Shown here piece after piece: positions 1 through 28,938 of a DNA stretch of 28,938 nt (its first letter is position 1; each line of letters begins with the position of its first letter). Where the stretch lies: assembly GCF_003334315.1 (NCBI RefSeq), contig NZ_QOWR01000059.1. One strand, given 5' to 3'. The position numbers and the translations under genes were made by a program. The stretch comes from Escherichia coli (lineage in GTDB: Bacteria > Pseudomonadota > Gammaproteobacteria > Enterobacterales > Enterobacteriaceae). The notes beneath the pieces were generated by a model that worked only from the letters and a program-made list of their open reading frames with translations, had not been told where the DNA came from and ran no database searches.

Positions 1-204
1 GGTTGAGAAGCGGTGTAAGTGAACTGCAGTTGCCATGTTTTACGGCAGTGAGAGCAGAGATAGCGCTGATGTCCGGCGGTGCTTTTGCCGTTACGCACCA
101 CCCCGTCAGTAGCTGAACAGGAGGGACAGCTGATAGAAACAGAAGCCACTGGAGCACCTCAAAAACACCATCATACACTAAATCAGTAAGTTGGCAGCAT
201 CACC
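1..204 (-). mobile_element. insA: IS1 insertion sequence, terminal portion (inverted repeat plus 5' part of insA); continues beyond window start
   Basis: Reverse complement of 1..204 reads GGTGATGCTGCCAACTTACTGATTTAGTGTATGATGGTG...GTGGCTTCTGTTTCTATCAGCTGTCCCTCCTGTTCAGCTACTGACGGGGTGGTGCGTAACGGCAAAAGCACC..., which I recognise as the IS1 terminal inverted repeat followed by the insA start (GTG at 149 on minus strand; translation [24 protein letters not shown]...). Recognition from memory, no search run. Confidence 0.85.
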
Positions 205-275
205 CGGCAGCATAACTACCCGTAGCGGCGAATAGTGCGGCAGCCAGCGCAGACGAAATAAATCTTAATTTCATA
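205..275 (-). pseudogene. sfmA: 5' remnant of a fimbrial major-subunit gene (sfmA-like signal peptide), interrupted by IS1 after about codon 23
   Basis: Minus strand from 275 reads ATG AAA TTA AGA TTT ATT TCG TCT GCG CTG GCT GCC GCA CTA TTC GCC GCT ACG GGT AGT TAT GCT GCC G (MKLRFISSALAAALFAATGSYAA), a typical fimbrial signal peptide, then runs straight into the IS1 terminus GGTGATG; the frame hits TGA immediately. Position next to folD matches the K-12 folD/sfmA arrangement. Confidence 0.55.
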
Positions 276-744
276 TATATTCCTTCAATCTCATTTATCG
301 ACTCCACATCCGTATATAACCGATTACTTTATTTAAGACACTGATAGTAGTAAATTCCTTTTTATCCTCTAAGAATGTCTTAATTGAAAATATGCACTCT
401 ATTCTAAAAAATAGAGAGCCCCGTTAGATGAATACTTCCGCGCATAATATATTCAACACAAATATAGACCTGAAGCGGTAAATTACCAGGCTGAAAATTC
501 TTTTTATATTGTCAGGTATTTCTTAAATTATCTTAATCCTTAGACAAGGAAATAAATCAGTTCCAGATTTACAACGCCATCATGGACGAAAAATGAAGCT
601 TTCAGTCTCAGCGACGGTGCGCCTCACCTTCGCAAGAGGTCGCTTCACGCGATAAATCTGAAACGAAACCTGACAGCGCGCCCCGCTTCTGACAAAATAG
701 GCGCATCCCCTTCGACCTACGTAACAGATGGAATCCTCTCTCTG

Positions 745-1611
745 ATGGCAGCAAAGATTATTGACGGTAAAACGATTGCGCAGCAGGTGCGCTCTGAAGT
801 TGCTCAAAAAGTTCAGGCGCGTATTGCAGCCGGACTGCGGGCACCAGGACTGGCCGTTGTGCTGGTGGGTAGTAACCCTGCATCGCAAATTTATGTCGCA
901 AGCAAACGCAAGGCTTGTGAAGAAGTCGGGTTCGTCTCCCGCTCTTATGACCTCCCGGAAACCACCAGCGAAGCGGAGCTGCTGGAGCTTATCGATACGC
1001 TGAATGCCGACAACACCATCGATGGCATTCTGGTTCAACTGCCGTTACCGGCGGGTATTGATAACGTCAAAGTGCTGGAACGTATTCATCCGGACAAAGA
1101 CGTGGACGGTTTCCATCCTTACAACGTCGGTCGTCTGTGCCAGCGCGCGCCGCGTCTGCGTCCCTGCACCCCGCGCGGTATCGTCACGCTGCTTGAGCGT
1201 TACAACATTGATACCTTCGGCCTCAACGCCGTGGTGATTGGCGCATCGAATATCGTTGGCCGCCCGATGAGCATGGAACTGCTGCTGGCAGGTTGCACCA
1301 CTACAGTGACTCACCGCTTCACTAAAAATCTGCGTCATCACGTAGAAAATGCCGATCTATTGATCGTTGCCGTTGGCAAGCCAGGCTTTATTCCCGGTGA
1401 CTGGATCAAAGAAGGCGCAATTGTGATTGATGTCGGCATCAACCGTCTGGAAAATGGCAAAGTTGTGGGCGACGTCGTGTTTGAAGACGCGGCTAAACGC
1501 GCCTCATACATTACGCCTGTTCCCGGCGGCGTTGGCCCGATGACGGTTGCCACGCTGATTGAAAACACGCTACAGGCGTGCGTTGAATATCATGATCCAC
1601 AGGATGAGTAA
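745..1611 (+). CDS. folD: Bifunctional methylenetetrahydrofolate dehydrogenase / methenyl-THF cyclohydrolase
   Basis: 288-aa [26 protein letters not shown]...; length and sequence match my memory of E. coli FolD; TAA stop at 1609..1611. Confidence 0.96.
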
Positions 1612-1612
1612 C

Positions 1613-1825
1613 ATGGCGACATTTTCTTTAGGTAAACATCCGCACGTTGAGCTGTGCGACTTGCTGAAACTGGAAGGCTGGAGCGAAAGCGGCGCGCAGG
1701 CGAAAATCGCGATTGCCGAAGGCCAGGTGAAAGTCGACGGTGCGGTTGAAACGCGCAAACGCTGCAAAATCGTCGCCGGTCAGACAGTGAGTTTTGCAGG
1801 TCACAGCGTACAGGTTGTTGCCTGA
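1613..1825 (+). CDS. ybcJ: Small S4-like RNA-binding protein YbcJ
   Basis: ATG at 1613 two nt after folD stop; 70-aa product MATFSLGKHPHVELCDLLKLEGW... The ORF track's longer 88-aa version starts upstream inside folD and is less likely. Confidence 0.8.
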   Translation: MATFSLGKHPHVELCDLLKLEGWSESGAQAKIAIAEGQVKVDGAVETRKRCKIVAGQTVSFAGHSVQVVA

Positions 1826-1833
1826 TCCCTTTC

Positions 1834-1865
1834 CCGGCCTGTATCAACAGGCCGGTTCTCTTTTC
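1834..1865 (+). terminator. Rho-independent terminator after folD-ybcJ
   Basis: Stem CCGGCCTG (1834..1841), loop TATCAA, stem CAGGCCGG (1848..1855), followed by TTCTCTTTTC. Confidence 0.6.
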
Positions 1866-1932
1866 AGACTTTTGCCCTCTACGCCCCGTTCATCCATGCT
1901 GATAGCATCGACATTTTGCCGAAGCGACCATC

Positions 1933-2454
1933 ATGCCAACCGTTATTACGCACGCCGCCGTTCCCCTATGCATTGGTTTAGGGTTGGGTTCGAAAGTCAT
2001 CCCTCCGCGCCTGTTATTTGCCGGAATCATCCTGGCGATGCTGCCCGATGCCGACGTCTTGTCGTTTAATTTTGGCGTTGCTTACGGCAATGTTTTTGGT
2101 CATCGCGGGTTTACCCATTCGCTGGTGTTTGCGTTTGTTGTCCCGCTGTTATGTGTGCTGATTGGACGTCGATGGTTCAGGGCTGGGCTGATTCGCTGCT
2201 GGCTGTTTTTAACCGTCTCGTTGCTATCGCACAGCTTGCTGGATTCGGTAACCACTGGCGGTAAAGGGGTTGGCTGGCTGTGGCCGTGGTCAGATGAACG
2301 CTTTTTCGCTCCCTGGCAGGTGATTAAAGTCGCGCCGTTTGCATTGTCTCGTTACACCACAGCGTACGGGCATCAGGTGATTATTTCTGAATTGATGTGG
2401 GTGTGGTTGCCGGGGATGCTACTGATGGGAATGTTGTGGTGGCGCAGACGATAA
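1933..2454 (+). CDS. ybcI: Inner-membrane protein YbcI (DUF457 family, putative membrane-bound metal-dependent hydrolase)
   Basis: 173-aa hydrophobic ORF MPTVITHAAVPLCIGLGLGSKV...; matches K-12 YbcI length and position between ybcJ and cysS. Confidence 0.85.
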   Translation: MPTVITHAAVPLCIGLGLGSKVIPPRLLFAGIILAMLPDADVLSFNFGVAYGNVFGHRGFTHSLVFAFVVPLLCVLIGRRWFRAGLIRCWLFLTVSLLSHSLLDSVTTGGKGVGWLWPWSDERFFAPWQVIKVAPFALSRYTTAYGHQVIISELMWVWLPGMLLMGMLWWRRR

Positions 2455-2478
2455 CCGGATGCGAAAACTCGCATCCGG
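2455..2478. terminator. Hairpin between convergent ybcI and cysS (probable bidirectional terminator)
   Basis: CCGGATGCG-AAAACT-CGCATCCGG perfect 9-bp stem directly after ybcI stop and 12 nt before the cysS stop; flanking U-tracts are weak. Confidence 0.5.
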
Positions 2479-2489
2479 CAATAGCGCAA

Positions 2490-3875
2490 TTACTTACGAC
2501 GCCAGGTGGTCCCTTGCGGGCCATCTTCCAGCACGATCCCCATCTCGTTAAGACGATCACGCGCCGCATCCGCCGCCGCCCAGTCTTTCGCTTTACGGGC
2601 ATCCAGACGCTGTTGAATTAACGCTTCAATCTCAGCCACTTCGCTGTCGTCTGCCTGCGCGCCGCTTTGCAGGAACGCTTCCGGTTCTTGCTCCAGCAGG
2701 CCCAATACAGCGGAAAGTTTACGCAGGTGAGATGCCATTGCATTCGCCGCTGCCATATCTTCTGCTTTCAGACGGTTTACTTCACGCGCCATATCAAACA
2801 GTACGGAATAGGCTTCCGGGGTGTTGAAATCGTCGTCCATCGCTTCAATAAAGCGCGCTTCAAACGCTTCGCCACCGGCAGGCGCAACGGTTTTATCTGT
2901 GCCGCGCAGCGCAGTGTAGAGACGCTCCAGCGCCGCACGCGCCTGCTTCAGGTTCTCTTCGCTGTAGTTCAACTGGCTGCGATAGTGGCCCGACATCAGG
3001 AAGTAACGCACGGTTTCCGCGTCGTAGTATTTCAGCACATCGCGCACGGTAAAGAAGTTACCCAGCGATTTGGACATCTTCTCGCGGTCAACCATCACCA
3101 TCCCCGAGTGCATCCAGTAGTTCACATACTGACCATCATGGGCACAGGTGGACTGCGCGATTTCGTTTTCGTGGTGCGGGAACATCAGGTCTGAACCGCC
3201 GCCGTGGATATCAAAGTGGTTACCCAGCTGCTTGCAGTTCATTGCCGAACATTCAATGTGCCAGCCAGGACGACCCGCGCCCCACGGAGACGGCCAGCTC
3301 GGTTCGCCCTCTTTCGACATCTTCCACAGAACGAAGTCCATTGGGTTGCGTTTGTCGTCGACCACGTCAACGCGCGCGCCTGCCTGCAGCTGGTCGAGAT
3401 CCTGACGCGACAGCACGCCATAAGTTGGATCGGTCGGGACGTCGAACATCACGTCGCCGTTGTCCGCCACATAAGCGTGACCTTTGGCGATCAGTTGTTC
3501 AGTGAGTTCAATAATTTCTGCGATATGGTGCGTCGCGCGCGGCTCCATATCCGGGCGCAGAATGTTCAACGCATCAAAATCTTTGTGCATTTCGGCGATC
3601 ATGCGATCCACCAGCGCCACAAAGCTTTCGCCATTTTCATTGGCGCGTTTGATGATTTTGTCGTCGATATCGGTAATGTTGCGCACATACTTCAGCTTAT
3701 AGCCGAGGAAACGCAGATAGCGCGCAACCACGTCAAAAGCAACAAAGGTACGCCCGTGACCGATATGACAGAGATCGTAAACGGTGATTCCACACACGTA
3801 CATGCCGACTTCCCCGGCGTGAATAGGCTTAAATTCCTCTTTTTGGCGTGTCAGAGTATTGAAGATTTTTAGCAT
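2490..3875 (-). CDS. cysS: Cysteinyl-tRNA synthetase
   Basis: 461-aa [46 protein letters not shown]... with class-I aaRS HIGH motif and KMSKS (EKMSKSLGN). Confidence 0.97.
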
Positions 3876-4048
3876 CGAAGATTCCGTTTAGACATGTGTG
3901 GGTAATTGAGTTGCGTATAATACCCATATTTCCCGCGCGAATCAGCATACATTGCGTGATGATCCGATCGTGCGGTTATGCTATAACACCACCCTATATA
4001 TGACCCGAACTGGGTTGAAGCACCAATCAAACGGAACAGGATGCAAAA

Positions 4049-4543
4049 ATGGTTACTTTCCACACCAATCACGGCGATATTGTCATCAAAACTTTTGACG
4101 ATAAAGCACCTGAAACAGTTAAAAACTTCCTGGACTACTGCCGCGAAGGTTTTTACAACAACACCATTTTCCACCGTGTTATCAACGGCTTTATGATTCA
4201 GGGCGGCGGTTTTGAACCGGGCATGAAACAAAAAGCCACCAAAGAACCGATCAAAAACGAAGCCAACAACGGCCTGAAAAATACCCGTGGTACGCTGGCA
4301 ATGGCACGTACTCAGGCTCCGCACTCTGCAACTGCACAGTTCTTCATCAACGTGGTTGATAACGACTTCCTGAACTTCTCTGGCGAAAGCCTGCAAGGTT
4401 GGGGCTACTGCGTGTTTGCTGAAGTGGTTGACGGCATGGACGTGGTAGACAAAATCAAAGGTGTTGCAACCGGTCGTAGCGGTATGCACCAGGACGTGCC
4501 AAAAGAAGACGTTATCATTGAAAGCGTGACCGTTAGCGAGTAA
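4049..4543 (+). CDS. ppiB: Peptidyl-prolyl cis-trans isomerase B (cyclophilin)
   Basis: 164-aa [61 protein letters not shown]..., cyclophilin fold signature. Confidence 0.96.
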
Positions 4544-4545
4544 TC

Positions 4546-5268
4546 GTGGCGACACTCTTTATTGCAGATCTTCATCTCTGCGTGGAAGAACCGGCGATCA
4601 CCGCCGGTTTTCTGCGTTTTTTAGCGGGGGAAGCCCGCAAGGCCGACGCGCTGTATATTCTTGGCGATCTGTTTGAAGCATGGATTGGCGACGACGATCC
4701 CAACCCACTCCATCGCCAGATGGCGGCAGCGATCAAAGCGGTGTCCGATTCCGGCGTTCCCTGTTATTTCATTCATGGCAACCGTGATTTTCTGCTCGGC
4801 AAACGCTTTGCCCGTGAAAGCGGCATGACATTATTGCCGGAAGAAAAGGTGCTCGAACTTTATGGTCGCCGGGTGTTGATTATGCATGGCGACACGCTGT
4901 GCACCGATGACGCGGGTTATCAGGCTTTTCGCGCCAAAGTCCACAAACCCTGGCTGCAAACGCTATTCCTCGCCCTGCCGTTGTTTGTGCGCAAACGCAT
5001 TGCCGCGCGAATGCGAGCGAACAGTAAAGAAGCCAACAGCAGTAAATCGCTGGCGATCATGGACGTTAACCAAAACGCGGTAGTCAGTGCGATGGAAAAA
5101 CATCAGGTGCAATGGCTGATCCACGGGCATACCCATCGCCCGGCGGTACATGAACTTATCGCCAACCAGCAACCTGCTTTTCGCGTGGTACTCGGTGCCT
5201 GGCATACAGAAGGTTCGATGGTGAAAGTCACGGCGGATGACGTTGAGCTGATTCATTTTCCGTTTTAA
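4546..5268 (+). CDS. lpxH: UDP-2,3-diacylglucosamine pyrophosphohydrolase (lipid A biosynthesis)
   Basis: 240-aa [29 protein letters not shown]... calcineurin-like phosphoesterase motifs (DLH, GNRD, GHTH); GTG start 2 nt after ppiB stop. Confidence 0.94.
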
Positions 5269-5298
5269 AAAACCCGCAACTTTGCTGATTTCACAGCC

Positions 5299-5314
5299 AC
5301 GCAACCGTTTTCCT
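5299..5314 (+). promoter_or_regulatory. PurR operator (PUR box) upstream of purEK
   Basis: ACGCAACCGTTTTCCT resembles the PUR-box consensus ACGCAAACGTTTTCNT; located about 70 nt upstream of purE ATG. Confidence 0.6.
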
Positions 5315-5385
5315 TGCTCTCTTTCCGTGCTATTCTCTGTGCCCTCTAAAGCCGAGAGTTGTGCACCACAGGAGTTTTAAGACGC

Positions 5386-5895
5386 ATGTCTTCCCGCAAT
5401 AATCCGGCGCGTGTCGCCATCGTGATGGGGTCCAAAAGCGACTGGGCTACCATGCAGTTCGCCGCCGAAATCTTCGAAATCCTGAATGTCCCGCACCACG
5501 TTGAAGTGGTTTCTGCTCACCGCACCCCCGATAAACTGTTCAGCTTCGCCGAAAGCGCCGAAGAGAACGGTTATCAGGTGATTATTGCGGGCGCAGGCGG
5601 CGCGGCGCACCTGCCAGGTATGATTGCCGCCAAAACGCTGGTGCCGGTGCTGGGCGTGCCAGTACAGAGCGCCGCACTGAGCGGTGTCGATAGCCTCTAT
5701 TCTATCGTACAAATGCCGCGCGGCATTCCGGTGGGTACGCTGGCGATTGGTAAAGCTGGCGCGGCAAACGCGGCGTTACTGGCAGCACAAATTCTTGCGA
5801 CTCATGATAAAGAACTGCACCAGCGTCTGAATGACTGGCGCAATGCCCAGACCGACGAAGTACTGGAAAACCCGGACCCGCGAGGTGCGGCATGA
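5386..5895 (+). CDS. purE: N5-carboxyaminoimidazole ribonucleotide mutase
   Basis: Start taken at ATG 5386 ([20 protein letters not shown]...) preceded by GGAG at 5371..5374; 169 aa; the ORF-track start at 5359 lacks an RBS. Confidence 0.95.
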
Positions 5896-6959
5896 AACAG
5901 GTTTGCGTCCTCGGTAACGGGCAGTTAGGCCGTATGCTGCGTCAGGCAGGCGAACCGTTAGGCATTGCTGTCTGGCCAGTCGGGCTGGACGCTGAACCGG
6001 CGGCGGTGCCTTTTCAACAAAGCGTGATTACCGCTGAGATAGAACGCTGGCCGGAAACCGCATTAACCCGCGAGCTGGCGCGCCATCCGGCCTTTGTGAA
6101 CCGCGATGTGTTCCCGATTATTGCTGACCGTCTGACTCAGAAGCAGCTTTTCGATAAGCTCCACCTGCCGACTGCACCGTGGCAGTTACTTGCCGAACGC
6201 AGCGAGTGGCCTGCGGTGTTTGATCGTTTAGGTGAGCTGGCGATTGTTAAGCGTCGCACTGGTGGCTATGACGGTCGCGGTCAATGGCGTTTACGCGCCG
6301 ATGAAACCGAGCAGTTACCGGCTGAATGCTACGGCGAATGTATTGTCGAGCAGGGCATAAACTTCTCTGGTGAAGTGTCGCTGGTTGGCGCGCGCGGCTT
6401 TGATGGCAGTACCGTGTTTTATCCGCTGACGCATAACCTGCATCAGGACGGTATTTTGCGCACCAGCGTCGCTTTTCCGCAGGCCAACGCACAGCAGCAG
6501 GCGCAAGCCGAAGAGATGCTGTCGGCGATTATGCAGGAGCTGGGCTATGTGGGCGTGATGGCGATGGAGTGTTTTGTCACCCCGCAAGGTCTGCTGATCA
6601 ACGAACTGGCTCCGCGTGTGCATAACAGCGGTCACTGGACACAAAACGGTGCCAGCATCAGCCAGTTTGAGCTGCATCTGCGGGCGATTACCGATCTGCC
6701 GTTACCGCAACCAGTAGTGAATAATCCGTCGGTGATGATCAATCTGATTGGTAGCGATGCGAATTATGACTGGCTGAAATTGCCGCTGGTGCATCTGCAC
6801 TGGTACGACAAAGAAGTCCGTCCGGGGCGTAAAGTGGGGCATCTGAATTTGACCGACAGCGACACATCGCGTCTGACTGCGACGCTGGAAGCCTTAATCC
6901 CGCTGCTGCCGCCGGAATATGCCAGCGGCGTGATTTGGGCGCAGAGTAAGTTCGGTTAA
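5892..6959 (+). CDS. purK: N5-carboxyaminoimidazole ribonucleotide synthetase (ATP-grasp)
   Basis: 355-aa [30 protein letters not shown]...; ATGA overlap with purE stop (translational coupling). Confidence 0.95.
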
Positions 6960-6975
6960 CTGGTGCTCTATTCTT

Positions 6976-7133
<158 letters not shown>

Positions 7134-7153
7134 CAAATGTCTAATGCCTACGA

Positions 7154-8047
7154 CTACAGCGAAATACAGGTCCCCGCTTCGCCCGCCAGCGTCTCTTCAA
7201 TTCGCGATAACGCCCCAATCCACGCGGGTTTACCACCGCTTCTGACATAACCACTCACCGCCGTTACCTTCGGCCCCATCGAACCATCGGCTTTGGCAAA
7301 TGGCGCTAACTCATCCGGTGTGGCATGGCGAATGGCGCGTTGCTGCGGCGTTCCCCAGTTTTCATATACCGCATCAGCATCAGTGAGGATCACCAGCCCA
7401 TCGGCGTTAATCTGCTCAGCGAGCAACGCAGCAGCGAGATCTTTATCAATCACCGCTTCACTCCCTGCCCCATCTTCCGTCACAGGCACACCGCCGCCGC
7501 CACTGCAAATCACCACATGCCCCTCTTTGAGCAACAACTCGATGGCTTCGCTGTCGAGAATTTTACGCGGTTGCGGAGACGCCACCACCCGGCGCAAATA
7601 TTTACCATCACGTTTCATCTGCCAGCCGTAAGCCGCTTCCAGTGCCTCTTGTTCTTCTGGCTGATAAACCGGACCAATAAATTTCTCTGGCTGCAAAAAC
7701 GCCGGATCATCAGGCGAAACCTCAATGCGCGTCAGCACCGTCGTCACGGGCGGCATCTGCGGCTGTGCGCTCAAACTCTGCGCCAGCATATAGCCAATCA
7801 TCCCCTGACTTTCTGCCACCAGCACATCCAGCGGATACGGTTCTACCTCTTTCCACGCCAGATTCTGCAATGCCAGCAGCCCCACCTGCGGCCCGTTGCC
7901 GTGAACAATCGCCAGCCGATAAGAACGGGCCAGGCGCGCCAGCGCGGGTACAGCACTGGCGATATTGCGATATTGATTTTCTGCCGTCAGCGCCTCACCG
8001 CGCTGGAGTAAGGCGTTTCCCCCAAGAGCTACAACCAGTGTTTTCAT
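7154..8047 (-). CDS. ybcF: Carbamate kinase (ArcC-like; reported as AllK)
   Basis: 297-aa [43 protein letters not shown]... amino-acid kinase family; start overlaps ylbF stop (ATGA). Confidence 0.9.
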
Positions 8048-8859
8048 GGTTTTCCTTGTAATAATTGTTGACCAAGCCAGAACCCCAGCAGTGTATCTGC
8101 CCCTGACGTATGCCCCAGCGCCAGCAGCGAATCAATCGCAACAGCGGTACGTTTCGGGCAACTCAGAGCATGAACAAAGTGCAGGAGTGGCGAGGCGAAA
8201 TATCCTTGCGCGGCATAACGTAAATAACTGACGCTCACCGCTGTGGTAACGAGTTGCAGATTGTCGGAACAGGCAAAAAACTGGCGACCGGAGCGCGCAT
8301 CTAAAGCGCCATAATACCAGGCCGCCAGCAGCATTCCGCTCAGCGTGTCATCATGACTCGGCGTTAATCCGGGGCCTTTACCCAGCCAGTGCCGCCAGTC
8401 GGTCTTAACGCCATTGAGCGCGGCCTGAAAACAGTGACGAAACTGGCGTAACTCAGCAGGCAGCGGATCGCTTGCCGCCAACGCCAGTGGCCCGAAAAGC
8501 CCGGTTTCCTCCGCGCATTGCATCCATGCAGCTGCAAGTGGTTGAGGATGCGCAGGCGGCGTAATACGCAGCAAACAATAACGCTGTGGCTGTTTAACCG
8601 TGAAACGCCCGAGGCGAATCCCTTGAGCCACAACCTGTGGTCGTTCATTGCCGCATAATCCACCGCATAACGCATCGAATTGCGCACGGCGAAGCATCCA
8701 TCCTCCGGGGCCGAAACCACTACCCTGACGATGCAGCGTTAACAGTTCGCCGCTTTCCGTCATCAGGTTAATCGCCCGTCGCCACACTCCCGCTAACCGC
8801 CAGGACTGGCGATAATTCGGTGCACTACGGCTGGCAAGCAGAGGATGGATGATCGTCAT
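8044..8859 (-). CDS. ylbF: YlbF (DUF2877 family; reported subunit of oxamate carbamoyltransferase)
   Basis: Start placed at ATG 8857..8859 ([21 protein letters not shown]...) with GAGGA RBS upstream, giving 271 aa; the longer ORF-track start at 8952 lies inside ylbE. Confidence 0.8.
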
Positions 8860-8869
8860 TGCGCGTTCC

Positions 8870-10129
8870 TCAACCAATCCCCATGCTTTCAGCCAGTGCT
8901 TCCAGCGCCTGTTCAAAACACGCCAGCGGTGCCCGCACAGTGCCTGCGCCAATCTGCCCGATCCCCGCCTCTTTATGGGCGATACCGGTATTGATGAGTG
9001 GCGTAATGCCGGTTTCTACCACGCGACGAATGTCCAGTCCCAGGCACGCGCCCTGAAAATCCCAGCCTGGGATCTGCAACTGCATATTGCGCTCAAGGTA
9101 AATTTCCGCCATCTCTTCAGATACCGCTCTGGCCGCTTCCATGCCACCCGCACCGACAAAGCGCGTTACGCCAGGCGCTGCGATCATTGCCGCACCTCCG
9201 ATACCAAAGGTTTCGGTAATCGCGCTATCGCCCATATCCGGGTTCGCCTGCTCCTGCGAGAAGCCGGTGAAAAACAGACCTTGCGGAGTGTTTACAGGCG
9301 CAGTAAACCAGCGTTCGCCCAGCCCGCTTACCCGAATCCCGAACATATTGCCGTTGCGGGTCATTGCCGTGACGATGCTGCCTGCGCGGATCATCGCGCC
9401 AGCATCCATCGCCGCCTTGCAGTAAGCCATCGCGAGGTTGAGGAAGAACTGATCGGTCACGCTGAGGAAATCCATCACTTCGGCGATGTGCTGTTTATCA
9501 TGATCGAGGCGAGCAATTTGTGGGACCAGCGCACGCATTAACAGTGCAGAGGAAGCAATATTGCGTTGATGGAACTCATCGCCCATCGTAATGCCCTGCG
9601 CCATCATCGCCGTGAGATCGATACCGCGCTCCATGCGCCCCAGCGCCGCGCTTAATACTGGCATTAACACATCGCGCATCCAGCGATGGCGAGTCAGGAC
9701 ATCTTCGCCGTAAGCGCCAAAACGCATCACTTTGCCGATACCTTCGTTGAGGTTGCAGTACGCCCGGTTGCCGTCGGTCACGTTCTCAACCACCAGCATC
9801 GGCATACTGGCAGAAGTAATACCGCCCATTGGACCGACGGCATTCACATGGTGACAAGGAATGAAGTTCACTTCCCCCTGCTCCAGTATTGCCAGCGCCT
9901 GCGCTTCATCTTTCGCCCAGCCTTCGAACAGACATGCGCCCACGCACGCCCCTTTCATGGGTCCGGTCATCTCCTGCCAGCGCATTGGCGGCCCGGCGTG
10001 AAGCAGTGTTTTGCCCTCGTTTAGTTCGCTGATAAGTGAAGAAGCCGGTTGCACATCCAGCCAGTGTGGACGAGCGCGACGAATTTGTTCGATAACCGCA
10101 GCATTGGCTTGCGCCACTGATGTAAACAT
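8870..10129 (-). CDS. ylbE: YlbE (DUF1116 family; reported subunit of oxamate carbamoyltransferase), intact
   Basis: Uninterrupted 419-aa [29 protein letters not shown]...; AAGGGG RBS immediately upstream, overlapping the fdrA stop. Confidence 0.85.
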
Positions 10130-10138
10130 GGGAACCCC

Positions 10139-11806
10139 TTATTGCAAACGTTCTAATAAACGAGCCAGTTTTTTATTGCCGCCGGCGACTGGCGACCATT
10201 GGTAATGCACAACCGGTTTGCTGGCGCTTTGTAGCTCCAGCGCAAAGCTGCGTAATCCGATGTTAATCACGGCGACGTTTTCCAGTAATGACGGTGTGTG
10301 TTGCTGAGTGGCAGGCGAAAGCGGACGAATCAGTGCCGCCGCCAGCAAGGTGGCTTCCGGCAGCGAACTCACTACCGCGATCCCTGCATCTTCCAGCGTG
10401 GCGATTTGCTGCGAGCGGCATTGCGGGTCACGTTCAGTGCCTGTCACCGTGGCAATGGCATACAGTGGTTGATTGTCTGAACGCGCAGCACAGGCTTTTT
10501 GCCAGGCGCTTACCAGCGAGGCGGCAGGATCGGCGGTCGCACCGAAGCCAATCACGACATCAAGCAGCAGCACACGCACTTGCGGTTTAGCGCCGAGATC
10601 GGTAATTAACTGGTTGCGTAAGGTTGGGTCGATCATCGGATGGGGACGCCCGACGGTGTAGAAATCATCGCCGAGGTCAATAATCTGGTGGCCATCGGCG
10701 TCCAGCATCATGCCATGTTGATGGGTATCGTCGGCTTCCACGCCAAGGTGCCCGGCAAGTAATCCCGCCGCTTCGGCGGCCAGCGTACCGCCGGTATACA
10801 AACCGCAAATAAATCCGCTGCTGACAGGTGCTATTGCGTTACGTCGCGCCGTGACGCGTGAAAGCAGGCAAGCCAGGCGTGCGGCCTCATCCAGCGAGGA
10901 GGCAAACCAGACATTCTCGTCGCGGGCCACCGCCGGGGTATAACCTAAAAACAGCGCCACCGTCGGTTTGCCGGTTGCTTTCATGGCATTAACAATTTTC
11001 AGACGCACAGCTTCGGCAGGCGGTTTTGAAACAAATGCCAGCACTTCGCTTTTCTCGTCTGCACTGAGCATTTCCAGCGCCGTCAGCGCACTGATGCCGC
11101 CCACTTCACGGCTGAGGTCGCGCCCGCCAAGGCCAATCGCGTGAGTAATTCCCTCCCCTGCCAGCGCAATCTGCGAACACAGTTCCTGAATCCCGGTACC
11201 GGAAGCGCCAATGACGCCAATATTGCCTTCCGGCATCACGTTAGCAAAAGCCAGCGGCGTGCCGGCAATCATCGACGTACCGCAGTCCGGCCCCATCACC
11301 AGCAAGCCTTTTTCCCGCGCGCGGCTTTTAAGTTGGATTTCATCTTCCAGCGTGACGTTATCGGAGAACATCATCACGTTGAGGTTGCGATCCAGCGCCT
11401 GGTTCGCCAGCTCCGCCGCATACTCGCCAGCCACTGAAATCAGCGCCAGACTGGCGTCGGGTAATTTCTGACAGGCACTGTCCCAGCGACGCACCTGCGT
11501 CAAGGCCTGGCTGCTGCCTGACCCCTGCGCCAGTTGTTTTAGCGCCTCTTCAAGCTGCTGCATAATCGCCTACGCGATCCCCGCATCCGCCGCTTCGCTA
11601 CGAATTGTCACGCAAATATCGTTCGACGTGGCGTTATTAAAATCGTCATGCCAGAAACCTGTGGTATCTAATAACGCTTTATTGGCGGGCGTACCCATCA
11701 TTACGGAAACATCATCAACATTTTCTGATTCGCTGAGTTTTCGTGAAATAATCATTAAACTGACCGAATCCTGAAAACACCCTTTTTTAATAAAGGCGTG
11801 GATCAT
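10139..11806 (-). pseudogene. fdrA: fdrA (succinyl-CoA-synthetase-like protein; reported AllF) interrupted by an in-frame TAG at codon 79
   Basis: ORFs 11570..11806 (78 aa, ...AADAGIA) and 10139..11563 (474 aa, MQQLEE...) are in the same frame. Minus strand reads GCG-TAG-GCG-ATT-ATG, so 78 + stop + 2 + 474 = 555 codons, the length I recall for K-12 FdrA. Confidence 0.75.
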
Positions 11807-12043
11807 AACAACTCCTTAAAAATTGCACCCATGGCAATTGCACGAGCAGTGTTAATGTGGCGATTACGGTATCGATGACAACGGGTAAATAAGGTGATGA
11901 ATATTACACAGGGATTATTAACAAAAGAATTCAAATAACCGCCATGCTATTACGTGTTATTTTTTAATAAGCGTGGTTGTTTTAAAAACCAGGTTAAAAG
12001 AGAGCGGATTATCAAATAAATTCTAACTATATTTTTTTGCCTG

Positions 12044-12063
12044 TCTGGATCACATAATCCAGA
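12044..12063. promoter_or_regulatory. Palindrome TCTGGAT-N6-ATCCAGA in the fdrA/allD divergent promoter region (candidate regulator site)
   Basis: Perfect 7-bp inverted repeat about 60 nt upstream of allD ATG in a 316-bp AT-rich intergenic region. Confidence 0.3.
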
Positions 12064-12122
12064 TATTTTCCCTGTATGTTAATTGCAGTCATGCTTCACA
12101 CCGTCGTTAAAAAGGAAGACAG

Positions 12123-13172
12123 ATGAAAATCAGTCGGGAAACACTCCACCAGCTAATCGAGAATAAACTCTGCCAGGCTGGGTTAAAACGTGAGCACGCT
12201 GCAACCGTGGCTGAAGTATTGGTTTACGCCGATGCCAGAGGGATCCACTCTCATGGCGCGGTGCGCGTTGAATACTACGCAGAACGCATTTCAAAAGGCG
12301 GCACCAACCGCGAACCGGAGTTTCGTCTTGAAGAAACCGGGCCGTGCTCGGCAATTTTACATGCCGACAATGCCGCCGGACAGGTCGCGGCGAAAATGGG
12401 TATGGAACATGCCATCAAAACCGCCCAGCAAAAAGGCGTTGCGGTGGTCGGTATCAGCCGGATGGGTCACAGCGGCGCAATCTCTTATTTTGTGCAGCAG
12501 GCAGCCCGCGCTGGATTAATTGGCATTTCGATGTGCCAGTCCGATCCAATGGTGGTGCCGTTTGGCGGCGCGGAAATTTACTACGGTACTAACCCATTGG
12601 CCTTTGCCGCGCCGGGAGAAGGCGATGAGGTCCTTACCTTTGATATGGCGACTACCGTACAGGCATGGGGAAAAGTGCTCGACGCCCGCTCGCGTAATAT
12701 GTCTATTCCGGATACCTGGGCGGTCGATAAAAACGGTGCACCAACAACCGATCCGTTCGCGGTACATGCTCTGCTCCCCGCCGCCGGGCCGAAAGGGTAT
12801 GGCCTGATGATGATGATTGACGTCCTCTCAGGCGTCTTACTCGGCTTACCGTTCGGGCGACAGGTTAGTTCGATGTATGACGATTTACACGCCGGGCGTA
12901 ATTTGGGGCAATTACATGTAGTTATTAACCCGAACTTTTTCTCCTCCAGCGAATTATTCCGTCAACATCTTAGCCAGACCATGCGCGAATTAAATGCCAT
13001 TACCCCCGCGCCCGGTTTTAATCAGGTTTATTATCCCGGACAGGATCAGGATATTAAACAACGCAAAGCCGCCGTCGAAGGCATCGAAATTGTTGATGAT
13101 ATTTACCAGCATTTAATTTCCGACGCGCTTTATAACACGTCATACGAAACGAAAAATCCCTTTGCGCAATAA
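12123..13172 (+). CDS. allD: Ureidoglycolate dehydrogenase
   Basis: 349-aa ORF MKISRETLHQLIENKLCQAGLKREHAATVAEVLVYADARGIHSHGAVRVEYY... (Ldh_2 / malate-L-lactate dehydrogenase family). Confidence 0.93.
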   Translation: MKISRETLHQLIENKLCQAGLKREHAATVAEVLVYADARGIHSHGAVRVEYYAERISKGGTNREPEFRLEETGPCSAILHADNAAGQVAAKMGMEHAIKTAQQKGVAVVGISRMGHSGAISYFVQQAARAGLIGISMCQSDPMVVPFGGAEIYYGTNPLAFAAPGEGDEVLTFDMATTVQAWGKVLDARSRNMSIPDTWAVDKNGAPTTDPFAVHALLPAAGPKGYGLMMMIDVLSGVLLGLPFGRQVSSMYDDLHAGRNLGQLHVVINPNFFSSSELFRQHLSQTMRELNAITPAPGFNQVYYPGQDQDIKQRKAAVEGIEIVDDIYQHLISDALYNTSYETKNPFAQ

Positions 13173-17977: not shown

Positions 17978-19339
17978 TTACTGCTGATGTTTAAGGATAA
18001 ATTGACCTTTCGGCGCAACAGGGAAGCCCTGTTCAATGTCGTAAATCACATCACCACGTAAGATGGTTTTCGTGATACGCGCGCCAATGGTACGGCCAAC
18101 ATACGGGCTGACTTTGTGGCGATATTCCAGATCGTCATTGGTAAGAACATAGCTGCTATTCGGCTGAATGAAGACGAAGTCGGCATCTTTTCCTGGGGCG
18201 ATACGGCCTTTTTGCTGCAGACCGAAAATATCTGCTGCGTTAGTCGCCATTAATTTGCCGAACATTGGCAGAGACATACCGCGTTTCTGTACCGCTTCAT
18301 CGAACATCACGTCCATGCAGCTTTGCAGACCGGCGATACCGCCCCATGCTTTCATGATGTTACCGGCTTTCATTTCCGGCGGGCATGGAGAGTGGTCGGA
18401 AACCAGGCAGTCGATTTCACCGTTAAACAGTTTTTCCCACATGCCTTTCTGGTTTTCCAGATCGCGGATCGGCGGTGAACACTTCGCCAGAGTACCGATT
18501 TCTTCGAACTGATCGGTATCCAGTACAAAGTAATGCGGGCAGGATTCACAAGTAACGTCCTGACCTTCCTGACGTGCACGAGTCACTTCCTCAACACCTT
18601 CCGGGCTGCTGACGTGGCAAACGTGCAGACGGCAACCAGCAACTTTCGCCAGATACAGTACGCGGCGAATTGCTTCCACTTCGGTAAATACCGGACGCGA
18701 AGCCACATAGTCATGAGCGGTTACGCGACCTTCACGCTTCGCTTCTTCGCCCAGTTCGTCACAAATCAGCGCGTTTTCGCAGTGCACCAGCACCGGCTGA
18801 CCCAGTTCGCCCAGCTTCTGCGCACCTTTGAAGAACTGCCAGTCGTTTACATCACGGAAGTCGTTGTCGATACCGCGATCGCCACAGGTCGCAACGAAGC
18901 ATTTGAAGCCGACAACGCCCACTTCATCCAGCTCATGCAGACGGTCGATGTTGTAAGACACCAGGCCACCGAGTTGTGCCGCATCAATAGTCAGCTTGCC
19001 TTTAGCGGCATCGAACTTCAGTTCAATTGAAGCGCGGTCAACCGTTGCAGGCAGCTGGTTGAGCGGCATTTCGATCATGGTGGTGATACCACCTTTTGCC
19101 GCTGCGCGAGTACCGGTTTCATAACCTTCCCAGTGGCTACGACCCGGTTCAGAAATATGGGTGTGCGCATCAACCATGCCCGGCGAAACCACCAGACCAG
19201 ACGCATCCATAACTTCTTTTGCATCGCCCAGATCCTGACCGATAGCAGCAATTTTTCCGCCTTTAACGGCGATATCTACAACGCGAGCTTCGTTTTCTAA
19301 AATAACGGTGCCGTTTTTAATGATTAAATCAAAAGACAT
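17978..19339 (-). CDS. allB: Allantoinase (cyclic amidohydrolase)
   Basis: 453-aa [80 protein letters not shown]... with metal-binding HxH motif. Confidence 0.95.
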
Positions 19340-19398
19340 AACAAACTCCTTGTAAAATACAGATTGGTTTTTAACTCAATGTTCAATATCGGGATTAA

Positions 19399-20853
19399 TT
19401 AACCTATGGTTTTTTGCTCTCCTGTTTTTTCTGCTGTTGTACGTTTCTTTAATAAGGCGTAGGCCGCAAAGGCGACGATGACGCCGACAAACCATGAAAC
19501 ACGCGATAACGGTTCCATAAAGTGAATAAACTTACCGCCAAGAGATAAAATAACGGCCACCAGAGTTACTGAAAACGCAGTGAGGTTAAAACCGTTATCG
19601 TAATATTTATAATCGCCAGGTGCGGTATACAGTTCATCAAGATTAATTTGTCCGCGCATCACCACAAAATAATGCGCCATCATGACACCAATTACCGGAC
19701 CAAGCATTCCGCCGATAATATCGAGGAAAAGATAAATGCTGTCCTGATTTTCCATTAATTTTCACGGGCAGATCAGCAAGCTGATAATACTGGCAATCAG
19801 TACGCCGTTTTTATAGGTCAGTTTTGTCGGTGCAATGGCGGCAATCTGATAACCGGCTGGAATAATATTACCGGTCGCGTTAGTGGAGATAGTTGTCATC
19901 AGAATAACCAGTACCGCAAAGAACGAGGCGAACAGGCTGTCCCAACGCTGAACAATATCCAGCACGTTCCAGGTATCAGCGCCGTAGTGAATACTGGCTC
20001 CGGCAATAATACATACCCCGGCGACCGCAAACAGAATATAGGCCACAACTAAACCCAGCGTTTGCCCCAGCGCCTGCTCACGAAACGAGTGGGCGTTTTG
20101 CGTAAAGTCGGATGCGCTCACCGCCGGTGCCGCCCAGACCGCAACTACCGCGTTAATCACCACCAGGAACAGGAAGCCACCGTTTTCTGCTTTCTGAATA
20201 CCGCTCGGAATGTAGTCAAAGATTGGACCGATCCCGATCAGTGAAATCGCCCAAATCGCCATACCGCCGAAAACGATATAGATGCACGGGTTAAGAATGG
20301 CAGTGAATTTATTTAAAACTTTGCCACCGCCAAAACCTATACCAACGTTGACCAGCCAGAAGATTAAGAAAGTAATTAAGCCCGGTAGAGAAAGGCCTAA
20401 CAGAGTGAAATCACCACCGAGAGTTAAAAATCCCGGCCAGATTTTGCCAATCAGAATCAAGCAGGCCAGTGACCCCGCGTAACATTGCAAACCAAACCAC
20501 ATGATGGCGGCAATTCCGCCCCTTAATAATCCGGGAAACAGTGCACCACGTACACCGTAAGAAGCACGCAGGATCATGGCAAAAGGCACACCGTATTTAC
20601 TGCCCGCAGCACCGTTTAATACCATTACCGCGGCAATGAAAAAGGCGCTGAGGATAATTGCCAGCATAATACTAAAGGTAGACAAGCCGAGAATAAAAAA
20701 GCCGCCGACCATCACATAATTGGGAACGTTATGAACCGAACCCATCCATAAGGTAAAATAGTTAAATGTTTTCCAGGTCCGCTGGCTTTGCGTTTTCGGC
20801 AATAGATCTTCGCTATAGCCGCGTTGCTGGAATAGTTTTCTCTGATGTTCCAT
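19399..20853 (-). pseudogene. ybbW: Allantoin permease (NCS1 family) interrupted by an in-frame TGA at codon 364
   Basis: ORFs 19762..20853 (363 aa ...LLICP) and 19399..19755 (118 aa MENQDS...) share a frame. Minus strand reads ...TGA-AAA-TTA-ATG-GAA, so 363 + stop + 2 + 118 = 484 codons, the length I recall for K-12 YbbW/AllP. Confidence 0.75.
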
Positions 20854-20990
20854 AAATCCCTCTTAATTTCACGTATCGAATAACGTTGTTTTAATCTAGC
20901 TATGAGGAACAAATAAAATAAAAATATTATTTTTAATACTGAAGCAACATCTTTGGCTGCTTTCTTTTTTAATATTGCTGGCCGATTCAT
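20712..20990 (-). CDS. ybbV: Hypothetical small protein YbbV (doubtful ORF overlapping ybbW 5' end)
   Basis: 92-aa ORF MNRPAILKKKAAKDVASVLKIIFLFYLFLIARLKQ... in the position of annotated K-12 ybbV; AT-rich, overlaps ybbW by about 140 nt. Confidence 0.3.
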   Translation of the reverse strand: MNRPAILKKKAAKDVASVLKIIFLFYLFLIARLKQRYSIREIKRDLWNIRENYSSNAAIAKIYCRKRKASGPGKHLTILPYGWVRFITFPIM

Positions 20991-21021
20991 TTTCTGATAT
21001 CGGCCATTTTTATTGCGGGTA

Positions 21022-21900
21022 TCAGGCCAGTTTATGGTTAGCCATTAATTCCAGCGCCTGCACTAACGCAGAGTGATCCAACTGGCTGCCACCGTTTGCC
21101 GCACAGGTATTAAATAACTCCTGGCAGGTCGCAGTGTTTGGCAGGTTCAGCGCAAGTGCTTTCGCACTTTGCAGTGCCAGGTTGAGATCTTTCTGGTGCA
21201 GAGCGATTTTGAAGCCCGGATTAAAGGTGCGTTTAATCATACGCTCGCCATGAACTTCCAGAATACGTGAGGAAGCAAAGCCGCCCATCAGCGCCTGGCG
21301 CACACGTACCGGGTCCGCACCAGCTTTTGAAGCAAATAGCAGGGCTTCAGAAACCGCTTCAATATTGAGCGCCACGATAATCTGATTTGCCACTTTGCAG
21401 GTTTGACCATCGCCGTTACCGCCCACGAGGGTGATATTTTTACCGAGCAGTTCAAACAGCGGTTTAACACGTTCAAATACCGCTTCATCACCGCCAACCA
21501 TAATCGACAACGTCCCTTCACGCGCACCGATTTCACCGCCGGAGACTGGCGCATCGAGATAATCGCCGCCCAGTTCATTCACCTGACGAGCGAAACGCTT
21601 AGTTTCAATCGGGGAAATGGAGCTCATATCAACAATGGTTTTGCCCTTCAGCGAGGCTTTGGTACAACCATTTTCACCGAACAGAACTTCTTCAACCTGA
21701 GGTGTGTCCGGCACCATAATAAAAATGATGTCCGATGCTTCCGTTACCTGGCGAGCAGTTTCAACACTGACGGCACCCAGTGACAGTAATTCATCAGCAA
21801 CCGGTCCAATGGTCGTGACATGTAATTGATGACCGGCACGCGCCAGATTAATGGCCATCGGTGTACCCATAATGCCTAAGCCAATAAATCCCAGTTTCAT
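21022..21900 (-). CDS. glxR: Tartronate semialdehyde reductase (2-hydroxy-3-oxopropionate reductase)
   Basis: 292-aa ORF MKLGFIGLGIMGTPMAINLARAGHQLHVTT... NAD-binding GxGxxG of the 3-hydroxyisobutyrate dehydrogenase family. Confidence 0.93.
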   Translation of the reverse strand: MKLGFIGLGIMGTPMAINLARAGHQLHVTTIGPVADELLSLGAVSVETARQVTEASDIIFIMVPDTPQVEEVLFGENGCTKASLKGKTIVDMSSISPIETKRFARQVNELGGDYLDAPVSGGEIGAREGTLSIMVGGDEAVFERVKPLFELLGKNITLVGGNGDGQTCKVANQIIVALNIEAVSEALLFASKAGADPVRVRQALMGGFASSRILEVHGERMIKRTFNPGFKIALHQKDLNLALQSAKALALNLPNTATCQELFNTCAANGGSQLDHSALVQALELMANHKLA

Positions 21901-25552: not shown

Positions 25553-26035
25553 TCACGCAAAACAGAGTTCCTGTTCAGGAATACTTTCAACATCACAGTT
25601 GTCACTGCCGCCGCGATCGATGGTCAGAAAATCGGTGACGCGCTGCCAGGCGAAAAGTGGGTGATGCCAGACGTTACGATGGTAATTCACTCCCTGTTCG
25701 CCGTTGGTGATAAACGCCCGCAGCGTTGACAGGTCTGGTTTGTCGTCACCTAACGCCACGACCACCACAAACACCTCACCTTTCATCGGGATAAAGGCCT
25801 GAGTACCCAGCGGATGACGTTCGAGTTCGTGAATGGTCAGCGGCAGATTCGCCGGTTGCGCGCGGTTAATGCTGATAAGCGTACGGTCTTGCTCAAGAAT
25901 CTCAACCAGCGCCAAATCGTGGTAACGCTCCACCAGGCCATTGTTAATATGGAAAAAATCCCGTTGCTGCGTTTCGATTACGTCGCCATAAGCACTAAAG
26001 GCTTCCTGACTTAACGGTAATACCTGAAGTTTCAT
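25553..26035 (-). CDS. allA: Ureidoglycolate lyase
   Basis: 160-aa [45 protein letters not shown]... Confidence 0.93.
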
Positions 26036-26140
26036 CTTTTTGTCCTTGTAACATAATTCCGTTCAACCACCGCCGACCGGTCAGCTTGGTTTCAATAACA
26101 GGCAATCTAAAACCTTAAGAGAACAACATCAATACAAAAG

Positions 26141-26157
26141 TTGGAATATTTTTCCAA
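26141..26157. promoter_or_regulatory. AllR operator in the allA/allS divergent intergenic region
   Basis: TTGGAATATTTTTCCAA, one mismatch from the gcl-promoter palindrome, located between divergent allA and allS. Confidence 0.65.
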
Positions 26158-26264
26158 AACTAGATTTAGTCCACAAATTGAACAGGGTTATCATGTAAAA
26201 ATACTGATAAATCAGAGGATAAGAAAATCACGCAACTTGCGGATTTAAAAGGGGATACCTGAAG

Positions 26265-27191
26265 ATGTTCGATCCAGAAACCTTGCGGACTTTCATTGCG
26301 GTTGCTGAAACAGGAAGTTTTTCAAAAGCGGCAGAACGATTATGTAAAACCACGGCGACGATCAGTTATCGCATTAAACTTCTGGAAGAGAATACCGGAG
26401 TAGCGCTGTTTTTCCGTACGACTCGCAGCGTGACGTTGACAGCGGCTGGCGAGCATCTACTTTCCCAGGCCAGAGACTGGCTGAGCTGGCTGGAAAGTAT
26501 GCCAAGCGAGCTGCAACAGGTGAATGATGGCGTGGAACGCCAGGTGAATATTGTCATCAACAACCTGCTCTACAACCCCCAGGCCGTCGCCCAGTTGCTG
26601 GCGTGGCTGAATGAGCGTTACCCCTTTACCCAGTTTCACATCTCCCGACAAATCTATATGGGCGTCTGGGACTCGCTATTGTACGAAGGTTTTTCGCTGG
26701 CTATCGGCGTCACGGGAACTGAGGCGCTGGCAAATACCTTTAGTCTTGATCCCTTAGGATCGGTGCAATGGCGCTTTGTCATGGCGGCGGATCATCCGCT
26801 GGCGAACGTTGAAGAGCCGCTAACAGAAGCGCAGTTGCGGCGCTTTCCGGCGGTCAATATTGAAGACAGCGCCCGCACCTTAACCAAACGCGTCGCCTGG
26901 CGATTGCCAGGGCAAAAAGAGATTATTGTTCCCGATATGGAAACGAAAATCGCCGCCCATCTGGCGGGCGTTGGCATTGGTTTTTTGCCAAAATCGCTTT
27001 GCCAGTCAATGATCGATAATCAACAACTGGTCAGCCGGGTAATCCCAACGATGCGCCCTCCTTCGCCATTGAGTCTGGCATGGCGCAAATTTGGCAGCGG
27101 CAAAGCGGTAGAAGATATTGTGACCTTGTTTACCCAGCGCAGGCCGGAAATCAGCGGATTTTTAGAAATTTTCGGCAACCCACGCAGTTAA
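26265..27191 (+). CDS. allS: LysR-family activator of allD operon
   Basis: 308-aa [68 protein letters not shown]... (LysR HTH). Confidence 0.93.
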
Positions 27192-28861: not shown

Positions 28862-28938
28862 TGATCTTACCCAGCAATAGTGGACACGCGGCTAAGTGAG
28901 TAAACTCTCAGTCAGAGGTGACTCACATGACAAAAACA
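28862..28938 (+). mobile_element. insE: IS3 left end (IRL and start of orfA), continues beyond window end
   Basis: TGATCTTACCCAGCAATAGTGGACACGCGGCTAAGTGAGTAAACTCTCAGTCAGAGGTGACTCACATGACAAAAACA matches my memory of the IS3 left terminus and the OrfA start (ATG 28927, MTKT...). Confidence 0.85.

Follow-up and report, generated by a model that had tools for sequence, protein, structure and literature searches.

The cryptic 'Salmonella-like fimbriae' operon of Escherichia coli begins with sfmA. The spacer between sfmA and its neighbour folD was previously described in K-12 as a 351-bp 'promoter island' located at U00096.2 557105 (Panyukov and Ozoline 2013, PMC3661553), in a study that also treats the H-NS motifs of this island and the short RNAs arising from it. 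Table 1 of that paper lists the island as H-NS-bound in the data sets of Kahramanoglou (MG1655) and Oshima (W3110), and not in that of Grainger. PMC5797941, in a statement citing Korea et al. 2010, describes the sfm operon as cryptic and repressed by H-NS, and it reports that sfmHF expression rose 2.6-fold upon overproduction of SlyA, an antagonist of H-NS. On the activating side, the passages of PMC10767902 and PMC12471899 that refer to Ogawa et al. 2022 state that phosphorylated FimZ induces the genes for Sfm pili in E. coli.

The comparable promoter of Salmonella enterica is PfimA, which is activated by FimZ and FimY, is modulated by Lrp and contains H-NS motifs (PMC3203922). In S. Typhimurium, Baek et al. 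(PMC3203922) determined a FimZ footprint from -98 to -47 of PfimA, with AAAATAAGA at -100 and ATTAAAAGA at -51. The leader of the Salmonella fim transcript titrates CsrA, according to the description of Sterzenbach 2013 given in PMC6844306. In E. coli, the positional orthologue of this Salmonella cluster is sfm, which no B2-group strain was found to carry (PMC3604780).

The window analysed here is the whole 28,938-nt stretch of E. coli contig NZ_QOWR01000059.1. In this window, the ORF list and the sequence place the sfmA-folD spacer at 275-744 (470 bp) between divergent genes, with the sfmA ATG at 274->272 on the minus strand and the folD ATG at 745 on the plus strand. An earlier note on this DNA had recognized the 470-bp spacer but set its limits at 276-744, one base short of the true ones. 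Alignment of 205-760 with E. coli K-12 MG1655 revealed two SNPs (445 and 716) and no indels in 556 bp; with only two differences, publications on the K-12 folD/sfmA spacer apply directly to this strain. The locus is the same as that of the K-12 promoter island, with the same cryptic, 'alien' fimbrial gene (PMC3661553), except that sfmA is cut here by IS1 after 70 nt. Very probably, the spacer is an H-NS-silenced, FimZ-responsive sfmA region combined with an ordinary folD promoter, in which a small palindrome is incidental and the fimbrial side has been killed by IS1. It is an ordinary, previously published regulatory region, and nothing in it is new.

The base composition of the spacer is not uniform. 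Positions 276-600 contain 31.7% GC compared with 51.9% in the whole window, and they form the lowest 325-bp stretch in the 28.9 kb, where 0.15% of all segments of this length are equally GC-poor. A step in GC content occurs at approximately 600, and 601-744 has 54.9% GC, similar to the folD coding sequence (54.3%). The description of the intergenic region as strongly AT-rich is therefore correct for 276-600 and incorrect for 601-744. Judged by composition, the AT-rich tract extends over 254..604 (no strand assigned) at approximately 31% GC and corresponds to the folD/sfmA promoter island. The island was placed on these positions through the gap-free MG1655 alignment and a genome-version offset of 777 bp, which we take to be the shift in coordinates from U00096.2 to U00096.3. 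Ten A-tracts occur per 325 bp, approximately 1.9 sd more than the mean in the window (4.7, sd 2.7). A curvature and AT-content profile had been proposed as a check; besides the AT-richness confined to 276-600, an analysis of A-tracts showed no helical phasing, as the AA/TT power at 10-11 bp was not above that of shuffled sequences, and intrinsic curvature is for this reason not claimed.

H-NS occupancy of the homologous locus had been named as the observation on which the silencing claim would stand or fall. Such occupancy is listed for K-12 in two of the three data sets in Table 1 of PMC3661553 and, together with the published expression reports, it supports the view that this is a sfm fimbrial control region of the H-NS-silenced type. 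The best candidate binding site, TCGATAAATG at 292..301 on the minus strand, agrees with the high-affinity consensus TCGATAAATT at 9 of 10 positions, and weaker matches (8/10) occur at 475-484 and 649-658. In the whole window, however, consensus matches are not above chance, with 35 found against 28.5 +/- 5.8 in shuffles. A promoter scan of 150-850 detected four sigma-70-like sites against 1.5 +/- 1.5 in shuffles. The arrangement resembles H-NS nucleation and spreading at proU and bgl, in that the AT-rich tract covers both the promoter and the transcribed leader, and the near-consensus TCGATAAAT candidate site (292-301) would lie downstream of the predicted sfmA start. Unlike those systems, no phased A-tracts were found at this locus.

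The regulatory picture drawn earlier lacked an activator side, missing both a homologue of the FimZ site and a long leader. In S. diarizonae, AAAATAAGA and ATTAAAAGA are 49 nt apart, exactly the published spacing, so that the start in Salmonella falls 194 nt upstream of the ATG, with TTTAAT as the -10. The spacer alignment is gap-free from the proximal heptamer to the -10, and the E. coli equivalents of the FimZ region, the -10 and the start could therefore be placed. By homology, the region protected by FimZ in Salmonella PfimA (-98..-47) would correspond to 503..554 on the minus strand. The proximal heptamer TTCTTAA (520-526) matches at 6 of 7 positions, and its distal partner TTAATCC (533-539) at 3 of 7, relative to the TTCTTAT-N6-ATAAGAA inverted repeat of other genera. 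Because the distal heptamer is degenerate, the exact E. coli FimZ site may lie elsewhere. TCTTAA/TTAAGA occurs four times in 276-600 against 0.66 expected, for a motif that was picked post hoc. The candidate sfmA -10, TCTATA or TATATT, is located at 461..468 on the minus strand, where it aligns with the Salmonella TTTAAT, and no good -35 accompanies it. On the evidence of this one alignment, sfmA transcription is predicted to start near 456, which would give a leader (5' UTR) of approximately 182 nt at 275..456 on the minus strand. According to the K-12 annotation, only fimZ is present between sfmF and argU, while fimY and fimW are absent; fimZ is situated beyond the edge of the window.

Spacers from 14 Enterobacteriaceae (this E. 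coli and 13 others), drawn from the loci in which folD diverges from a pilin gene, were aligned, and several conserved blocks were found. These are the folD-proximal block at ~660-744, a block at ~500-540 built on TTCTTAT-N6-ATAAGAA, a TAAATTAA block at ~455-468, ATCC (GGAU on the sfmA strand) at ~308-311 and 364-367, and the Shine-Dalgarno sequence at 280-286, which reads GAAGGAA for sfmA. The GGAU motifs of the predicted leader (307-313 and 364-370) have ACAGGAUG motifs as their aligned counterparts in Salmonella and Citrobacter, and their conservation suggests that the E. coli sfmA leader could also bind CsrA. Folding of the 180-nt leader was no better than that of shuffled sequences (z = -0.9), and RNAalifold analysis of 10 leaders yielded only three short helices, whose covariation term (-0.12 kcal/mol) is insufficient to argue for a conserved structure.

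The sfmA side of the spacer thus resembles Salmonella enterica PfimA in its orthologous place between folD and the major pilin gene, in its alignable FimZ-footprint region and -10, and in its long predicted leader with GGAU motifs and a Shine-Dalgarno sequence. FimZ activation is reported for both species in the passages cited above. In contrast, E. coli has a degenerate distal FimZ heptamer, K-12 is without fimY and fimW, and the E. coli tract has 68.5% AT compared with 61.8% in Salmonella (PMC3661553). In addition, an AT-rich palindrome occupies the position of a GGA-loop hairpin in the leader, and the sfm operon is cryptic, whereas the Salmonella operon is expressed.

The folD side does not belong to the fimbrial system, and the view of the spacer as a purely fimbrial control region had to be abandoned, since 660-744 (plus strand) comprises the conserved core promoter and leader of folD. 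This element was recognized by the promoter scan and is near-invariant in the 14 Enterobacteriaceae. It consists of a -35 CTGACA (670-675), a 17-nt gap and an extended -10 TGaCAAAAT (690-698), with a predicted start near 705. The folD coding sequence, defined by ORF and annotation, follows at 745..1611 on the plus strand and encodes 288 aa. The folD-proximal end was matched in 5,426 of 5,426 complete E. coli genomes, and the whole spacer in 4,192. In E. coli without sfm, homology upstream of folD begins only at ~660, approximately 10 nt upstream of the folD -35, and in one such strain, EC65, the tRNA-Arg gene (argU) with the fimZ-argU spacer is joined to folD at ~660. Because sfm-less strains keep only the sequence from 660 onward, 660-744 can be regarded as the core folD promoter and 275-659 as an accessory sfm segment. 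The earlier opinion that the output of the region is of little phenotypic consequence is consequently acceptable for the sfm side, which is disrupted by IS1, and not for the folD promoter (660-744), which is kept even in strains without sfm.

Some further features were observed on this side. In sfm-less E. coli (NZ_CM128671.1, 3738-4085), argU and prophage integrase remnants are located directly upstream of folD. Between the AT-rich tract and the core promoter, the alignment delimits a variable spacer of normal GC content at 605..659 (no strand), which is absent in E. albertii. Some E. coli have a 9-bp tandem duplication, CTCAGCGAC, at 607-615, and a 20-codon ORF at 593-655 (plus strand), which overlaps the variable spacer, is probably not a gene. 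A PurR-box-like sequence, ACGCAAACG in Citrobacter and ACACAAACGTT in Salmonella, is present just upstream of the folD -35, corresponding to 656-669 of the window, and the E. coli version, TCTGAAACGAAAC, is degenerate. PurR control of E. coli folD was rejected on the basis of this degenerate box and of the main text of the K-12 PurR ChIP-chip paper, which does not name folD.

The disruption of sfmA by IS1 that had been claimed was borne out. The left end of IS1 occupies 1..204 on the minus strand as read from the sequence, and the element continues beyond the edge of the window. Its left inverted repeat, GGTGATGCTGCCAACTTACTGAT, corresponds to 204->182, and insA is co-oriented with sfmA. The IS1 part matches thousands of copies in E. 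coli genomes that are annotated as IS1A-family transposase. MG1655 homology begins at 205, directly past the IS1 end. What is left of sfmA is a 5' remnant of 70 nt at 205..274 on the minus strand (274->205), which is identical to MG1655 sfmA (b0530) in the alignment and encodes MKLRFISSALAAALFAATGSYAA. The remnant is followed by a Gly codon across the junction and then by an in-frame TGA within IS1, and the corresponding ORF spans 200..307. Since IS1 truncates sfmA after 70 nt, fimbrial output is abolished in this strain.

The exact IS1/sfmA junction was not found among the matches listed in a search of 5,426 complete E. coli genomes; each of these matches was split in two and had its IS1 at a different distance. 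The closest complete genomes, for example NZ_CP033096.1 (2040-4774), have ~100% identity over 205-12000. In these genomes sfmA and sfmC are intact, and sfmD harbours a like-oriented IS1 at a point 1,912 bp more distant from folD. Because of this same-orientation IS1 in sfmD, the junction at 204/205 could have arisen not by simple insertion but by an IS1-mediated adjacent deletion; the sequence to its left is beyond the edge of the window. In other E. coli, covering NZ_CP147032.1 (3256-3953) and a set of 34 genomes, independent IS1 copies are present at varied distances in and around sfmA, and in strain 22F46 an IS1 is inserted inside the sfmA-folD spacer. The AT-rich tract looks like a recurrent target of IS1.

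The inverted repeat that had been noticed around 396..416 exists, although its register was slightly off. The core arms are CTCTATT (397-403) and AATAGAG (410-416), separated by a 6-nt spacer, and the extended palindrome GCACTCTATT-CTAAAA-AATAGAGAGC found by the repeat search occupies 394..419 (no strand), with arms at 394-403 and 410-419 that pair at 9 of 10 positions. Its abundance by chance was evaluated with 1000 dinucleotide-preserving shuffles of the spacer, allowing loops of 3-12 nt. Perfect stems of 7 bp or more arose in 25% of the shuffles, and stems of 9 or more pairs with one mismatch in 14%, so the palindrome is no more than expected by chance. E. albertii, Salmonella and Citrobacter lack the palindrome, as do the remaining genera with alignable sequence to its left and right. 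The association of the palindrome with H-NS silencing was not upheld, as no link between the two was found and the repeat is statistically unremarkable and unconserved. Most likely, it is an incidental product of AT-enrichment in the sfmA leader, without a function of its own.

Two functions have nevertheless to be weighed against this incidental origin. The palindrome would lie at ~+38..+63 of the predicted leader, and it could act there as an RNA hairpin, either as a weak terminator or attenuator or as a stabilizing stem, and so further the silence of sfm. On the sfmA strand it folds with -10.7 kcal/mol, forms in 58% of the ensemble and is followed by the U-rich tail AUAUUUUC, and its location corresponds to that of a short CUC-AGGN-GAG hairpin in the Salmonella and Citrobacter leaders (+47..+58). 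However, only 4 of its 9 pairs are G-C, which is not the G+C-rich stem of a terminator, and it is missing from the output of the terminator scan. Stems of similar quality in 14-25% of the shuffles, the non-significant fold of the whole leader, the lack of the palindrome in E. albertii and, in E. coli NCCP 13905, a naturally occurring T->A substitution of the left arm that is not compensated all count against such a role, and it is considered quite unlikely. An Rfam 15 scan of 1-2000 on both strands returned no matches at E<=10. It is conceivable, though of low probability, that AT-enrichment turned the CUC-AGGN-GAG hairpin into the E. coli palindrome. The reading in which this GGA-loop hairpin, likely a CsrA site, was replaced in the E. 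coli lineage by a longer, AT-rich and GGA-less attenuator with a U-rich tail at 394-419 that aids the crypticity of sfm together with H-NS is very unlikely. The palindrome could otherwise serve as the operator of a dimeric DNA-binding protein that regulates sfm or folD, as suggested by its two-fold symmetry with 7 perfect bp and a 6-bp spacer and by its near-invariance in E. coli, although the entire region is equally invariant. Its distance to the folD start codon is ~330 bp, and relative to the predicted sfmA start it is on the downstream side. Moreover, it is at chance level, is unlike every PfimA motif discussed (FimZ, Lrp and H-NS) and is conserved in no other genus, unlike the FimZ, -10 and folD promoter blocks, which makes an operator highly improbable.

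Other explanations concern the AT-rich segment as a whole. It shares with fimS of the E. coli fim operon a similar size and the nature of an AT-rich, H-NS-bound fimbrial promoter region, and it was therefore considered as an invertible, phase-variable switch. Perfect 8-bp inverted repeats are indeed present, for example ATTTATCG (293-300) and CGATAAAT (650-657), which are 349 bp apart, but the five 8-mer inverted pairs are not significantly above the 2.4 expected (P=0.15), and none reaches 9 bp. Whereas fimS has flanking 9-bp inverted repeats and recombinase genes, the K-12 annotation of this locus includes no recombinase gene. One orientation is shared by all aligned sequences from E. coli, E. 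albertii and other genera, and no inverted one was detected across 4192 genomes. With repeats at chance level, no recombinase and one orientation, a fimS-type switch was rejected and is given practically no credence. The AT-rich tract has also been interpreted as a mark of recent acquisition of sfm from Salmonella (PMC3661553) rather than of old vertical inheritance. Several predictors call sfm 'alien' (PMC3661553), and it is missing from ~23% of complete E. coli genomes, with no B2-group strain carrying it in the published survey. However, an SfmA scan with one genome per species, which recovered 31 loci, showed folD divergently upstream of a fimA/sfmA-type pilin gene in 24 of them, and these represent eight genera (Escherichia, Salmonella, Citrobacter, Trabulsiella, Leclercia, Lelliottia, Kosakonia and Phytobacter). 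Like Salmonella fimA, the E. coli pilin gene is a major pilin gene of the gamma-1 type that diverges from folD. The spacers that could be aligned are comparably AT-rich (38-46% GC), the identity of SfmA with the Salmonella FimA proteins found in the scan is only 64-65%, and the strains without sfm look like deletions that joined argU to folD at ~660. The cross-genus alignment thus favours an old syntenic locus over the recent-transfer view of PMC3661553, and recent transfer appears unlikely.

A number of observations were made elsewhere. In JADFNT010000058.1, a metagenome bin labelled 'Proteobacteria bacterium', the encoded SfmA is 100% identical, whereas FolD matched at only 65% by tblastn; this mismatch may reflect faulty assembly, a frameshift or a chimera. 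Within the window, fdrA has an in-frame amber codon at 11570-11572 (minus strand), where A at 11572 replaces the G of MG1655 (CAG->TAG, Q79*) and the 555-aa gene is divided into two ORFs (78 and 474 aa). An in-frame TGA is present at 19762-19764 (minus strand) in allW (ybbW), the gene for the allantoin transporter, where T at 19762 replaces the C of MG1655 (TGG->TGA, W364*), leaving ORFs of 363 and 118 aa. The allW stop and the IS elements suggest gene decay in this lineage. MG1655 homology ends at 28862, and the remaining 76 nt (28863-28938) begin with TGATCTTACCCAGCAATAGTGGACAC and contain an ORF starting with MTKT at 28928. These nucleotides are presumably the left end of an IS3-type element; with IS1 at one end and IS3 at the other, the window resembles a contig that was interrupted at repeats. 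Other 325-bp stretches with less than 40% GC occur at ~11600-12250, ~19200-19680, ~20600-21130 and ~25890-26440 (extents derived from the start positions of the segments), in or near the allantoin-cluster spacers fdrA/allD, allB/allW, allW/glxR and allA/allS; none of them is as AT-rich as the sfmA tract.

Together, these data point to 275-744 as a composite divergent spacer, which would comprise the control region and leader of sfmA, an unconstrained part and the folD promoter. Judging from the K-12 literature, the AT-rich tract at ~254-604 would be coated by H-NS and remain silent under laboratory conditions. Transcription of sfmA would require the orphan response regulator FimZ, which may act at the homologous region ~503-554, upstream of a weak, -35-less candidate -10 near 461-468. 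The leader produced would retain GGAU motifs akin to those of the CsrA-titrating Salmonella fim leader. The segment 605-659 is probably unconstrained spacer, and 660-744 would function as an ordinary sigma-70 promoter and leader of folD, whose expression should be untouched by IS1.

The palindrome at 394-419 offers no reason to be retained as a feature. The anatomy of the region is corrected, in that one third of the 'fimbrial control region' consists of unconstrained spacer and the folD promoter, and the FimZ footprint and transcription start of Salmonella are now placed on the E. coli sequence. The locus represents textbook-style H-NS silencing of a cryptic chaperone-usher fimbrial operon, the K-12 copy of which has already been analysed base by base.
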